From: Saccostrea echinata
Lineage: Eukaryota
Assembly: GCF_033153115.1 (NCBI RefSeq)
Contig: NW_026889800.1
Span: 7,502,001-7,566,000, forward strand
DNA: 64,000 nt
Reading direction: 5' to 3'
The translations under genes and the position numbers were made by a program. Under the pieces are notes generated by a model that was not told the DNA's origin, searched no databases, and saw only the letters and a program-made list of their open reading frames with translations. This document shows positions 6,475 to 23,615 of the stretch, piece after piece. Position 1 is the first letter of the stretch; every line of letters begins with the position of its first letter.

Positions 6475-6928
6475 CAGGTCCAGCACAATACCCTGATAAA
6501 GGTATATAGCTTGATAAAGCTATATACCTTTATCAAGGTATTACAAATACCTTGATCAACGTATTTTATGTAATGAAAATACAAAAAAAATTCCTAAAAA
6601 ATTAAATTTAAAAGTCAAATTATGAGTTGTGGTCAGTGTGTTCACTCGTGCATGAAAAGTACTCAGGTATCAAAAAGACAGCATAAAAGAACGTCTCCTC
6701 ACACGACATGCTTTTTTACCGATTTCTTTGTGTTTAAGTACTTTACATGCATGAGTGAATTTACCGAGAACAACTCAGAACTCGACTTTCAGTATTTATT
6801 TTTTTTTAGGATTTTTTTTTTGTATTTCATTACATAAATTACCTTGATCAAGGTATTTGTAATACCTTGATAAAGCTATATAGCTTTATCAAGCTATATA
6901 CCTTTATCAGGGTATTGTGCTGGACCTG
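6475..6928. mobile_element. MITE with ~125-bp TIRs and 5-bp TSD TGTAT
   Basis: TGTAT|CAGGTCCAGCACAATACCCTGATAAAGGTATATAGCTTG...CAAGCTATATACCTTTATCAGGGTATTGTGCTGGACCTG|TGTAT. Confidence 0.92.
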
Positions 6929-7329
6929 TGTATTATGAGGCTAAGAACACTGAAGAATAAGATACAGTGCAAAACTACTGACTAAAGAAAGCAAGCTATG
7001 GCTTTATATATAATTTTTGATGTTTCTTTCTCAAAAGATATTTGTAAAAAGATATAAATAATTTTTTTTAAATAAAACATCTACAATTTCTGTCCTCTAA
7101 TTATCGCTCTATAAGTATATTATCCTACTGGAAATGCCAACCTGTCAAAACAGTAAGTCTTTTATCAACTCATACGTACAATATTTCGTTTTTAGAATAT
7201 TGAAAAGCAAAAGGGAATTAATGCATAAAAATGAAATAAATTTAAAGATAGATTGATGAATCCCTGCTTTCGTTGATAAATTATTATTCATTTTTGGAGG
7301 TAATTTATTTTTGCAACTATTTCTTTTCA

Positions 7330-7600
7330 ACAAAACTCAGAACGAGTTAATTTGCCAGTGTTGGTAAAATGAGTAGTAAATTTGGACCGAGCCGGTTTAT
7401 CCGCTTATTAAGAGGTTTTTGCTTAAAAGTTTCAATGTAACTTATACATATTTAATTGTTTTATTCTATTTATTCTATTCCATTACTTAAAAGCTTAATT
7501 TTTTTAGTGTAACTTTCTTAAATATTACCAGAAACGTATACTAGTTAATATGCTCCTGATTTTACCTGAACTACAATTTAAAGATGGCGGCGCCCACGGG
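7330..7600. promoter_or_regulatory. Probable bidirectional promoter of SLC41 and NOPCHAP1
   Basis: Divergent ATGs 1.3 kb apart; YY1/TISU-like AAGATGGCGG at 7581-7590; CpG-containing patch at 7385-7405; minus-strand donor-like TTCAG|GTAAA at 7570-7561. Confidence 0.55.
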
Positions 7601-10600
7601 GAGCGTAAGTGTCAACAAAACCCAATCCTCAGAACTTCTTGCCCTCGAAATTAGGGACAATGGTACAGTATTCATGTTTGGAATATATTTATTTAATGTG
7701 AAAGCATGTGTCATGTTTCAGGGCGCAGACTAGAAATGCAAGCTACAGCAAATATTTTTAGATGTGAAGAGAGAGAGAGAGACGGATCAAGTACAATCAC
7801 TTAATTTAACAGTTACTCAAACAGTTGTTCAAAAGCAGAGATGTTTAAACTTTCTTTTCTCTGGGTTGCTTTTTTTAATTTCTGTTTCATTTAAGAAGTA
7901 ACTGTTTGTTGAAAAATTTACTTGTTGTAATTAGCTCAAAACCTTTAGAACTTTGATTCAATTGCGCTGAAGGAAACGCATCTTCAAGAGTAATTTTTTC
8001 CATGAATTGTTTTCAGATCAGTTCAAAGTTGATAATTATGTACTGCATAAGTATGATTTTTTTGTACATCACAAAAAGAAATGCTTATTTAAAAAGTAAT
8101 TATGATCAGAGACATAAATAATAGAGATTCACAACTGTTTGAAGTCTTGTGTGATCTTGCGGTCCCTAGTATATAGATGGTGCGACCATTAGGGCGAGCG
8201 TAGATACCTATACAGTTTTTGATTTACATTGTCTCTTCAAACCGCACGTGACATTTGGTACATCTAGACTCTGGGGTCACATGACGTCGTATGTAAGTTG
8301 CATAAAAAAATCTTACCTGAACAGCGTTAGTTTTAATGAAGAATGTTTAAGCTACTGTTTTCTCTGCAATATCTATTCAATGTGATTTTATTTTTGTTGA
8401 ATTTCTGTTGCTACCACGAGAACGTAGATGCAATTCGCAAAGCATTATGGGACCACAGGTTACTGCGGAAAAAAAATTGGTTTGGATTAATGTGCAAAGT
8501 CTGAATTTTCAGGATGTTATATTTTTGTAAGTTTCTTTATTTAAAACAATAACAAAGGAGAAACCTAAAATTGCAACAGATGACTCAAGGTCAGTCATAT
8601 CGCCACAGTTTTGCCGACTTTCGATTATTGACCTCTTTAATTTGCCTAGTTTGCTTTTAAAAACAATAAAGTTTTAAAATTTTACCAATCGTACACCTAT
8701 ATATAATAAAATTAATATTAAGTTAACTTTTGATAGAAATACACAAGCAATAAAGAGATATCTTTAGGATAACACCAAGATCGTCACATATTTCAATAAA
8801 CAAATATGTTAATGGCAGAGTTGTGAATCTCTATTATTTATGACTCTGGTATGATTTAGTAGGTAAATAAAGCTACTTAGGTAATCCAAACTATGTTGCT
8901 AAATGTAGCAATTGTATCGGACCATCTTCCCAAGTCAAGGGTTTCTGATCCACTCTGCCATGTCTGCTCCACATAAACCCATGACTGAATAGACTAAGCT
9001 TGACAGGTTAGAAATGCGCTCTCTGATTGGCCTTAATATACAAGTTTTCATGAGGCAAAAACAAAAAAGTTGTTTTATTTAACCTGAAACTAGATCATAA
9101 ATAGAAAAACATGCCAGTTTTAGTTCCAACAAAAACATCATTACCATTGAATAACTCAGTCTAATGTTTGTCTCAGCTTTTTAGTTAAATTTATGTTGAA
9201 TTTATTACCAACTTCCAATATTGTCTCGCATTCTCTGTTTAATTCACTTACTTTGATTGGTCAATAGCAGAGGTCAGTAGAGTTCAAAATGTGTAATCTC
9301 ACAAGATGCTGTGATAGTAAACCCGTCAAACTTAGTCTATTAGGTTAGTGGTTTATGTAGAGAAAAATGGATTTGAAACCCTTGACTTGAGAAGATGGTA
9401 CCAGACCTGAGAGATAGAGAGAATACATATGCAAATGTAAGCACCTAAAAACGAGTGTTCAAGAAAAATGTGTTGCATGCGGGTACTCCAAAGTCATATG
9501 TAACAGTAAGTATAATAAGAAAACTGAAATGTCCCATTAAAAAAACATATACATGTACCCTGGTAGGTTTTAAGGTATTATTTTTTTATTTTAAAAAAAA
9601 TTGTATTACATTTACAGAAACAATATACTATGAAAATAAAGAATTTGAGTAATACACAAGTAACATAACAGGATTGACTCAACTTTGTCAAGAGTTTCTG
9701 TCAGTGAAAAATTTTCACGAACAATGTCACAAGTACTGCTGGGCAGTTGCCTGATTGGACAAGTGAAGAAAACTATTGGAAAAAAGTATCTTTGAGAATT
9801 TCAGCAGATTTGGATGAAAAATTCCTGTTTTTTAATTTCAGGTAGTCACTTAGCCAATATTTTCGACCTGAAGAAAAAGAAGACTCCAGAAAAAACAGAG
9901 AAGAAAACATTCAGACTTCCTCCAAGTTCAAGTAATCCTTCAGATATAGACTACCACTTGATACTAAAATATATCACAATTTTATTTCAATTACTTTTAA
10001 ATCCAATTTCTCATGCAGTAAATCTTTCTGATTGTTGTGTTATCACAACTGGGCAGTAAATTTGTTAATGTTCATAAGGATGTAAATTTGTGGGTAAGGG
10101 AGACCCATGAACATTGGTTCCACATGAACAATTATGATTCTACTGTAATTCATCATTGTTCATATCAAATGATCACTTTTTGTATTGCAGTACATGTTTA
10201 ACATAAATCATGCAAGGTGTGATTAAAATTTTGGTAATCAAAATTGCACTTACTGATGGGTGCTGTGAAGTGCATTCTTTGAGTAAGGACATTGTATTTA
10301 TTCACATGCGTATGCGAAGATTCACTAAGTTATTTTCTACAATGACATTTAATTTGTTTTACTGTAGTTCTATCACAAGTAAGAGATTTCTTACCTCAGA
10401 TGGAAATGGCCAACAAAGCTCTTCAGGATAAGTCTACAGAAGAATTAGACATCGAACAGGTGTCAGATGACCAGGGTCAATTCATAGAAATGGTAAGACC
10501 ATCTTCTTCCTTAATGAATTAAAAACAGCAGACCAGGGCTGCTACATAGAAATGGTAAGACCATCTCATTCCTTAATGAATTAAAAACAGCAGACCAGGG

Positions 10601-11958
10601 CTGCTACATAGAAATGGTAAGACCATCTTCTTCCTTAATAAATTAAAAAGAGAGGACCAGGGCTGCTACATAGAAATGGTAAGACCATCTTCCTCCTTAG
10701 TAAATTAAAAAGAGAGGACCAGGGCTGCTACATAGAAATGGTAAGACCATTTCATTCCTTAATAAATTAAAAAGCGAGGACCAGGGCTGCTACAAAGAAA
10801 TGGTAAGACCATCTTCTTCCTTAATAAATTAAAAAGAGAGCACCAGGACTGCTACATAGAAGTGGTAAGATCATCTTCTTCCTTAAAAAATTAAAAAGAG
10901 AGGACCAGGGCTGCTACATAGAAATGGTAAGATCATCTTCTTCCTTAATAAATTAAAAACAGCAGACCAGGGCTGCTACATAGAAATGGTAAGACCATCT
11001 TCTTCCTTAATAAATTAAAAAGAGAGGACCAGGGCTGCTACATAGAAATGGTAAGATCATCTTCTTAAAAAATTAAAAAAGAGGACCAAGGCTGCTACAT
11101 AGAAATGTTAAGATCATCTTCGTCTTTAATAAATGAAAAACAGAGGACTAGGGCTGCTACATAGAAATGGTAAGACCATCTTCTTCCTTGGACCAGGGCT
11201 AATACATAGAAATGGTAAGATCATCTTCTTCCTTAATAAATTAAAAACAGAGGACCAGGGCTGCTACATAGAAATGGTAAGATCATAACCTCCCTTAATT
11301 TATTGAATTTACTCTCCTCTATCCAGATTCATTATGTTTTAATAAGTAAGTATCAAGCACACAATTGAGCCATTTTAGTTCTTAATATGCACCATTTTCA
11401 AACCTCTTCTGTAGGTGGAATTAGATTTTGTGGTATGTTGCTTTGAAAAGAAGAGCTCTTAATATTACCATTGATTTATAAAGATCGAGTGGCATCATTC
11501 ATCATGCTACTCAATAACTTCATAATTTGACTATTTGATGTTTGTTTTTAAATCTGAGGATGAAAAGTCTTGCATCATGTGAAATCATAGTCTTTATCTT
11601 AATGTCATAGTCTTTATCTTAATCCTACGAGAGTGTTCTCGAAGCTTTATTTTTTTGAAAAAATATTCTTATCCAAGTTATATTTTGCAACCTGGATATC
11701 TTTCAGAATATTGCAGTGGTGGAACAAAATGGAGATATCTCGGAAGACTCAGATTCAGAGCATTGTAGTGACTCAGACTGTGATATAAATTCTGATTCAG
11801 ATGAGTGTTTAATGGGCACAGTGACAGAAAACAATCTTCGGGTTAATAAAAAGGTGAAACACAAACCTAATATTGAGGAACTCCCAAACACTGCTTCAGA
11901 CAGAAGTGGAGCTTGTTATCATCAGTCTGAACATAAATCAGTTGTTGATAAAGGATAA
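7584..11958 (+). CDS. NOPCHAP1: NOP protein chaperone 1 (C12orf45/DUF4598 homolog), 4 exons, ~181 aa
   Basis: Exons 7584-7662, 9842-9931, 10368-10492, 11707-11958 (546 nt, in frame). ATG sits in AAGATGGCGG. ILSQVRDFLPQMEMANKAL...LDIEQVSDDQGQFIEMNIAV, then an acidic Ser/Asp tract and VTENNLRV...PNIEEL, matching the recalled human C12orf45 layout (LLDQVQTFLPQMARANEKL...FNIENI...VIQMDVAL). Confidence 0.88.
8106..8849. mobile_element. Non-autonomous DNA transposon, ~31-bp TIRs, TATGA duplication
   Basis: TATGA|TCAGAGACATAAATAATAGAGATTCACAACT...AGTTGTGAATCTCTATTATTTATGACTCTGG|TATGA. Confidence 0.85.
8919..9402. mobile_element. Older MITE with long imperfect TIRs
   Basis: GGACCATCTTCCCAAGTCAAGGG...AATAGACTAAGCTTGACAGGTT pairs with AACCCGTCAAACTTAGTCTATT...CCCTTGACTTGAGAAGATGGTACC. 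Confidence 0.75.
10469..11298 (+). repeat. 62-bp minisatellite (~14 units) built from the NOPCHAP1 exon 3/intron 3 junction
   Basis: Unit GACCAGGGCTGCTACATAGAAATG|GTAAGACCATCTTCTTCCTTAATAAATTAAAAAGAGAG. Donor-like GT at 10493, 10555, 10617, 10679, 10741, 10803, 10865, 10927, 10989, 11051, 11170, 11215, 11277; the copy at 11108 is mutated to TT. Confidence 0.95.
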
Positions 11959-22589: not shown

Positions 22590-23615
22590 AAAATTACAAA
22601 GCTCACCTCAACAAATGTTATCTATAAGTAAAGCAAATCTCACATATTTTTTTCTACTTAGTGTGCATCCCAAGATCAATATTCATGCAAGTTTCATTTA
22701 AGTAGAGCTTGTAGTTACTTGGAAATGGACCTGCTCTAAAAACTTTGACCTGTTCACTAATCAAAAATATGTTGGTCAGTTCCAACATCTGAAGCAAGTC
22801 TTGAAGTGTCCATCCTAAGATGCATCATCTATGCAAGTTTAATCATAACCCGCCATATAATTATAGAGCTACTCCAAAAAAACATTACCCTGGTCACTCA
22901 TCTGCAAAATGTAGGTCAGATTTAGAATCCAAAGCAAGCTAAGTCTAGAAGTGCCTATGCATAGATACATCATCCAATGCTTATTTGGTTAAAGGATGGC
23001 TAAAAATCACTAATCTGGAAAATAAGGGTCAGATACAGCATCTGAAGAAGGTTGGGTAGTGTCCATCCTTAGATTCATCATCAATGAAAGTTTGGTCCAG
23101 GTATAGGGCTTATTGTTACTTGGGAATGAACCTGCTCCTAAAACTTTAACATGGTCACTCATCTTGACAATGTAAGTCAGATCCAGTATCTAAATCAAGT
23201 CTGGTAGTGTCCTTTCCTAAATGCATCATCCACGCAAGTTTGGTCCAGGTAGAGCTTATAGTTACTTGGAAATGGACCTGTTCAAAAAACTTTAACCTAG
23301 TCACTCATCTGGAAAATCTTGGTCAGATCCAGCATCTGAAGCAAGTCTGGTAGTGTCCAACCCTAGATGCATCATCCTTGCAAGTTTAGTCCAGGTATGT
23401 CTTACACTTACTTAGGAATGGACCTGTTCCAAAAACTTTAACCTGGTCATTCATCTGGAAAATATAGGTCAGATCCAGCATCCAAATCAAGTCCATGCAT
23501 TCCTAGATGCATCATCCTTGCAAGTTTGGTCCAGGTAGGGCTTATAGTTGCTTGGGAATGGACTTCTTCCTAAAACTTTAACCGGGACACCGACTTAGTC
23601 AAGGTGAGCTAAAAA
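22590..23615 (-). mobile_element. Helentron/HINE-like non-autonomous element with internal ~143-bp tandem array
   Basis: Ends in AGGTGAGCTAAAAA (reverse complement of the TTTTAGCTCACCT 5' motif); ~6 units containing ATGCATCATCC.TGCAAGTTTGGTCCAGGTA...AAAACTTTAACCTGGTCACTCATCTGGAAAAT..AGGTCAGATCCAGCATC. Confidence 0.72.

Follow-up and report, generated by a model that had tools for sequence, protein, structure and literature searches.

A 62-bp minisatellite across an exon–intron boundary of oyster NOPCHAP1 repeats a 5′ splice site of which RNA contigs use the first copy

Minisatellites that extend over an exon–intron boundary are known from the human genes F7, CBS, 6-16, LMNB2 and PDGF, as described in PMC1557585. 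Intron 7 of F7 carries a 37-bp variable number tandem repeat whose most upstream donor alone is used (Borensztajn et al. 2006, PMC1557585). There, when the donors were inactivated one after another, splicing moved at every step to the most upstream one still intact. Downstream sites that had been strengthened entered into competition only if they were a perfect match to the consensus, and identical downstream sites stayed unused, with no other variant among 50 clones. The authentic donor alone is also reported there to be used in LMNB2 (100 bp, 10–15 units) and in PDGF intron 4 (81 bp, 16–18 units); two further pseudo-sites are used in CBS, whose intron 13 holds 15–20 units, and in 6-16, whose intron 2 holds 25 pseudo-sites. 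The title of a paper referenced in that source associates the repeat in CBS with reduced enzyme activity, which, together with the use of further donors in CBS and 6-16, indicates that members of the class are not always silent.

Here we describe a 62-bp minisatellite of 14 units at the exon 3/intron 3 boundary of NOPCHAP1 in the oyster Saccostrea echinata, which lies within a 64-kb window (the whole stretch of DNA analysed). Judged by its sequence, the array is a member of the already known class of junction-spanning minisatellites (F7 IVS7 type). As in F7, unit 1 spans the authentic boundary, identical donors follow downstream (an intact donor is repeated in the intron in 12 of the 13 downstream units) and the first donor alone is seen in use, in the oyster at contig resolution. 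The two arrays differ in build, with 37 bp, 5–9 copies and 4 exonic bases per unit in F7 against 62 bp, 14 copies and 24–29 exon-derived bases per unit in the oyster. They differ also in what is known of them: the mammalian array has known length alleles and minigene proof that its pseudo-sites are functional, whereas the molluscan one is known from one assembly, by sequence and contigs alone. The arrays of CBS, 6-16, LMNB2 and PDGF belong to the same class and resemble the oyster array in unit size and copy number; CBS and 6-16 use two pseudo-sites, whereas none is seen in use in the oyster at contig resolution.

The host gene and its array

The gene has four coding exons (Table 1), which together encode a 181-aa product identical, letter for letter, to the database protein P0001 (S. 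echinata LOC133203599), that is, the product of donor 1. Residues 58–157 match the Pfam NOPCHAP1 profile (PF15370) over positions 2–110 of 110, with a score of 50.1 bits (cut-off 27). This match and the identity to the database protein bear out the gene name given in the original prediction, which had been made from the DNA letters. NOPCHAP1 occupies a single locus in the S. echinata genome, and its oyster relatives P0002–P0005 continue across the exon 3/exon 4 junction with nothing inserted. Human NOPCHAP1, also known as C12orf45, links NOP58 with RUVBL1/2 in box C/D snoRNP assembly, as stated in the portions of PMC7826282 drawn on here, which contain nothing on splicing control of the gene. 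Both the oyster and the human proteins are small conserved PF15370 factors, the profile being matched over nearly its full length, and from this likeness we infer that the oyster protein would also be a box C/D snoRNP assembly factor. Among the titles listed by a literature search for NOPCHAP1/C12orf45, none concerned oyster or the splicing of this gene, an outcome that does not prove absence from print.

Table 1 Features of the oyster NOPCHAP1 gene and its array
Feature	Coordinates	Strand	Remarks
Exon 1, coding part, ATG at 7584	7584..7662	+	Joint 7661/2→9841/2, GT..AG, runs X1 and X6
Exon 2, 90 nt, symmetric	9842..9931	+	Joint 9931→10368 in 4/4 runs
Exon 3, 125 nt, ends in phase 0	10368..10492	+	Encodes Pfam PF15370, first 45 positions
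62-bp minisatellite, 14 units	10464..11309	+	Unit = exon 3 end + intron 3 start
Authentic 5′ splice site, ATG/GTAAGA	10490..10498	+	Sole site seen in use; loose end past 10492 reads exon 4 start, 4/4 runs
Intron 3, 1214 nt	10493..11706	+	
Predicted AATAAA/ATTAAA hexamers	10518..11240	+	21–26 nt past donor, 12/14 units
In-frame TAA after exon 3 extension to any later donor	10520..10522	+	107-aa product
Intact pseudo-donors, n = 12	10552..11282	+	+1 = 10555, 10617, 10679, 10741, 10803, 10865, 10927, 10989, 11051, 11170, 11215, 11277
Dead donor copy, unit 11	11105..11113	+	T at +1 (11108)
Only 18-nt microexon candidate with pyrimidine tract (unit 13, 0.75)	11197..11214	+	Reads G*YIEM
Exon 4, coding part, up to stop codon	11707..11958	+	

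Cutting positions 10469–11314 at the unit start yielded 14 units, and TRF reported a period of 62 with 90% matches and a score of 1132, in agreement with the roughly 14 copies of a 62-bp unit that had been proposed. The units are 62 bp long, with two shorter exceptions, unit 10 at 57 bp and unit 12 at 45 bp, and the array makes up about two thirds of intron 3. The unit had been described as 24 nt of exon 3 plus 38 nt of intron 3; it does span the boundary, but the similarity starts about 5 bases earlier, at 10464, and stops near 11309, and the alignment places unit 1 at 10464–10525. A CTTAAT motif, expected in each unit, was found in only 9 of the 14.

The sequence G/GTAAGA occurs in 13 of the 14 units, as the true donor at 10493 and the 12 extra intact copies that had been predicted to follow it, the copy in unit 11 being dead. 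Eleven of the 12 intact pseudo-donors match the true donor at every position from −3 to +6. Of the 17 G/GTAAGA sites that the window has on its + strand, 13 fall in the array, a clustering far beyond chance. Three units used as DNA queries against the S. echinata genome (923 Mb, 425 contigs) gave 6 matches, an outcome that does not prove rarity; as all of these fall within the array, a dispersed-element origin finds no support. No look-alike stretch was found in the other genomes searched.

The frequency of such arrays was estimated from 664 kb of the same contig, comprising the window and 60 further stretches. Minisatellites are common in this sample: tandem repeats make up 12% of it, and 63 arrays (95 per Mb) have a period of at least 15 and at least 4 copies. 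In seven of the 63, the NOPCHAP1 array and 6 others, half or more of the units contain GTRAG. None of the 4 others that were inspected by eye, without annotation, resembles a coding exon end; two 146-bp, 4-copy arrays were left out. If the array frequency is scaled up to the genome and the donors are taken to number of the order of 200,000, some hundreds of arrays would be placed on real donors by chance alone, a rough figure that is an upper one because many arrays belong to mobile elements.

RNA contigs use the first donor

The RNA evidence consists of assembled contigs from 4 runs of 3 studies, placed on positions 7400–10530, so that the comparison covers the exon 3 side of intron 3 up to 10530; the sampled animals may or may not carry the array. 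These are 4 of 10 listed runs (X3, X5 and X7–X10 were left out), 9 of which contain part of the stretch, none being recorded as RNA and none reaching half of its words. In all four runs, the contigs join exon 2 to exon 3 and then depart at 10492 into the first letters of exon 4 (among the rows listed, 24 of 46 loose ends and 32 of 63 pieces). The predicted junction from 10492 to 11707 is thereby supported by RNA, with the donor at 10493 and the acceptor at 11707. Run X6 was guessed to be DNA, yet its contigs are plainly spliced. The depths of the last bin, observed and as predicted for cover that stops at 10492, were 45.8 and 45.82, 7.39 and 7.37, 10.8 and 10.77, and 7.01 and 7.03, and this agreement indicates zero cover of 10493–10530 by the contigs of all four runs. 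No contig therefore extends to a later donor or ends at a poly(A) site of the array, as either would have to cross 10493–10530.

Alternative splicing elsewhere in NOPCHAP1 is visible in the same contigs. A second exon 1 donor is used in X1 (7604→9842, depth 25 versus 71), and other first exons occur in X4. The contigs of X1 are interrupted where exon 1 meets exon 2, the site of the second donor, and one X1 contig runs unbroken across the exon 3/exon 4 junction. At contig resolution, the donor at 10493 alone is used; contigs lose rare forms, and targets of nonsense-mediated decay (NMD) are scarce in ordinary RNA without an NMD block, so that rare use of other donors is possible.

Extension of exon 3 to a later donor would end the protein early. 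The reading VRPSSSLMN* had been predicted for such extensions, and it holds for all 12 later donors, the stop cutting the Pfam domain after residue 98. The distance from this stop to the last junction is 94–754 nt for donors 3–13 (11 of the 12 later donors) and 32 nt for donor 2. In mammals, a stop more than 50–55 nt before the last junction marks a transcript for NMD, a rule that may not hold in molluscs. Under the 50-nt rule, transcripts spliced at donor 2, which by analogy with F7 and CBS is the likeliest to leak, would escape decay and be the easiest to see, and they are absent from the contigs of the four runs.

These stops are what an expression dial coupled to NMD would need, as the original prediction had suggested: part of the transcripts would use later donors and reach the TAA at 10520, those from donors 3–13 being degraded and those from donor 2 encoding a truncated chaperone, and more units would mean less NOPCHAP1. 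A premature stop from every later donor, in 11 cases at a distance compatible with NMD, and the truncated domain are consistent with this reading. The two extra donors used by CBS and 6-16 (PMC1557585) and the splicing-altering tandem repeats catalogued in humans (PMC10078293) also speak for it. However, no contig of the four runs passes 10492, the stop of the donor-2 form lies 32 nt before the last junction, inside the 50–55-nt limit, so that this form should have been visible in 10493–10530, and in F7 the identical downstream sites are unused (50 clones, PMC1557585). We therefore regard such a dial as unlikely, while giving it some weight.

Donor strength and history of the array

Neither strength nor folding singles out the first donor. 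Paired with the U1 5′ end, all 13 intact donors give a duplex energy of −8.0 kcal/mol, against −1.5 kcal/mol for the dead site, and the accessibility predicted for the true donor, 0.002, falls within the range of the intact copies (0.0002–0.024). Equal duplex energies and overlapping accessibilities indicate that position, not strength or fold, sets donor 1 apart. We considered whether folding might conceal the copies while leaving the true donor free, and rejected the idea, since a short hairpin lies over the unit 1 donor as it does in most copies.

The edges of the array differ from its interior in opposite halves. Relative to the array consensus, unit 1 has 7 differences in the 29 positions of its exon half and 1 in the 33 of its intron half; unit 14 has 1 in 29 and 10 in 33, respectively. 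Such a pattern is expected if, after a single duplication, the hybrid unit in the middle was amplified. A local tandem duplication across the exon 3/intron 3 boundary may thus have started the array, and slippage or unequal crossing-over would then have amplified a hybrid unit made of the intron half of the first copy and the exon half of the second. Two inner units are separated by 5.4 differences in the mean, although units 3 and 9 have the same sequence, and position +7 holds a C/T variant that is mainly C toward the 5′ side and T toward the 3′ side. CpG decay, considered as the source of the difference between the exon and the copies, was dropped, because unit 13 has two letters in common with unit 1 in the columns concerned. 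The shared letters point to either an older state or conversion from unit 1.

Because the array is known from one assembly, it might have been inflated by the assembler or be confined to one animal. Its units, however, share structured variants and carry two different deletions in addition to the inner-unit differences, features that argue against assembly error and imply time for mutations to build up; the probability that we attach to an artefact or a private allele is close to negligible.

In units 2–13, the donor 9-mer carries 2 of 25 substitution alleles against 3.6 expected (P = 0.57), a comparison of low power in which even a complete absence of such alleles from the 9-mer (0 of 25) would reach P = 0.02. 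At this power, there is no sign that the copied donors are either better kept or more decayed than the remainder of the unit. A role as a U1 decoy, also put forward in the original prediction, finds no support in this lack of extra conservation.

Poly(A)-like hexamers

The units also carry predicted AATAAA/ATTAAA hexamers after their donors, a feature absent from the earlier prediction. Their density is 21 per kb in the array and 3.0 per kb in the window, and the density in the array reflects one A-rich stretch that was copied and not hexamers that arose 12 times independently. No hexamer is present in the last unit, which has diverged, and no GU-rich or U-rich downstream element was evident by eye. 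At least half of the units carry hexamers in 6 of the 63 arrays; the NOPCHAP1 array alone among the 63 has donor and hexamer on one strand, although it was picked for its donor.

This arrangement could suit units that bind U1 without being spliced, and that either silence the poly(A)-like hexamer downstream (telescripting) or help or hinder the definition of exon 3 according to their number. The placement of a hexamer at +21 to +26 in 12 of the 14 units, its density and the pairing of both motifs on one strand, in an array selected for its donor, are in keeping with such loading. Against it stand the presence of hexamers in other arrays anyway, their origin in a single stretch copied 14 times, the last unit, the missing downstream element, the donors without special conservation and the contigs of four runs, none of which enters the array. 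We hold a U1-loaded array to be very unlikely. Among the titles listed by a literature search on tandem repeats with telescripting, none dealt with arrays of donor plus poly(A) signal, which does not prove their absence from print.

Microexon candidates

Each copied donor could in principle close a microexon, if an AG located 18 or 24 nt before it served as an acceptor and GCYIEM or DQGCYIEM were inserted between exons 3 and 4. The in-frame stretches foreseen for this purpose exist, twelve with a length of 18 nt and eight with a length of 24 nt, and exon 3 ends in phase 0. Their surroundings, however, do not resemble those of acceptors: the 20 nt upstream of the candidates are 50–60% A and 20–40% pyrimidine, compared with 20% A and 65–75% pyrimidine for the three main acceptors that are supported by RNA. 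The expected lack of a pyrimidine tract beside the AG accordingly holds for 11 of the 12 candidate units (0.2–0.4) and fails for unit 13 (0.75), where a 17-bp deletion in unit 12 moves a pyrimidine tract next to the CAG of the candidate. This one exception encodes a stop. Moreover, the contigs pass from 10492 directly to exon 4, and P0002–P0005 have no such insertion. The array as a generator of microexons, which had been offered as a third possibility, is thus highly improbable.

Discussion

We consider it probable, with good confidence, that the array is a neutral minisatellite and that splicing takes place at the first donor only. By analogy with mammalian F7, the later donors would be competent yet outcompeted by the first. 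The donor at 10493 would be favoured, again as in F7, by exon definition from the acceptor at 10368 and by the order of 5′-to-3′ synthesis. The array may be tolerated because the spliceosome would choose the donor nearest the exon, and rare slips to donors 3–13 would be cleared by NMD as noise.

Poison exons and other elements that couple alternative splicing to NMD in SR protein genes typically show deep conservation, and their use can be seen. An alternative site would bring a premature stop in the oyster gene too, but here the later donors are unseen in use and appear to drift at the rate of the remainder of the unit.

The array could also act as a length-polymorphic dosage control on an ancient snoRNP chaperone. 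Every further unit would add a U1 site and, 21–26 nt downstream of it, a poly(A)-like hexamer, and the number of units would determine the share of pre-mRNA that goes into splicing at later donors and NMD or, if U1 runs short, as it might under stress, into intronic cleavage. We think this very unlikely; if true, it would be a U1 sensor built from repeats in an invertebrate. Unless later donors are used or copy number affects expression, the array opens no new mechanism.

As the exon halves differ between the true and the copied units, at positions −16 to −11 before the donor, reads can be assigned to them, which makes the array a natural test substrate. As a neutral minisatellite spliced at its first donor, it would be a further clean example, from a mollusc, of a row of identical donors that leaves splicing unconfused, and it suggests that the first-donor preference of human F7 is general in animals.

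Repeat arrays in the window and along the contig

In the survey of tandem repeats across 664 kb of the contig, donor-like motifs were found in two 35-bp arrays of the stretch L013, with AG|GTAAG occurring in most or half of the units (see table). By eye, the flank that follows the first of these arrays and the flank that precedes the second are reverse complements of each other, which suggests that the two arrays belong to a mobile element rather than to an exon end.

At 11190–11214, unit 13 of the 62-bp array shares two letters with the real end of NOPCHAP1 exon 3 that are absent from all other copies, suggesting either an older copy or conversion from unit 1. The window also holds arrays of 166–168 bp and 146 bp (44719–45836, 48793–49548, 49847–50404 and 23007–23590), and the size of 166 bp is reminiscent of the common oyster satellite. 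A stretch of approximately 450 bp (about 6475–6930) has long inverted ends with 18-bp repeats and looks MITE-like by eye; NOPCHAP1 starts 650 bp downstream of it.

Features located in L013 and in NOPCHAP1 intron 1
Feature	Location	Position	Remark
35-bp array, 25 copies	L013	434–1298	
35-bp array, 8 copies	L013	4579–4856	
First alternative 5′ exon, run X4	Intron 1	8926–9006	First joint listed with GT..GT ends
Second alternative 5′ exon, run X4	Intron 1	9359–9505	Joined to exon 2

Alternative 5′ ends of NOPCHAP1

The S. cucullata protein model P0002 lacks the 30 residues encoded by the symmetric exon 2 (9842–9931), reflecting either exon skipping or a difference between gene models. The unnamed, 131-residue protein P0006 matches exon 4 behind an unrelated front end. 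The protein looks like a relative's reading frame that runs on from the last part of intron 3 into exon 4; if so, intron 3 would sit at the same site in that relative.

Assembled contigs from run X4 contain two further 5′ exons within intron 1, joined to exon 2, and these forms carry nine short upstream frames before the first long frame, which begins in exon 3 and encodes 114 residues. Contigs assembled from run X1 reveal a second exon 1 donor, with a joint from 7604 to 9842 (depth 25 versus 71) that is marked 'between: not known'. Read from the main ATG (7584), this form reaches a stop after 10 codons; an ATG lying further upstream (7550) instead opens an in-frame reading of 173 residues with a different N terminus. 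The choice of exon 1 donor at 7604 is a better candidate than the array for regulated splicing of NOPCHAP1.
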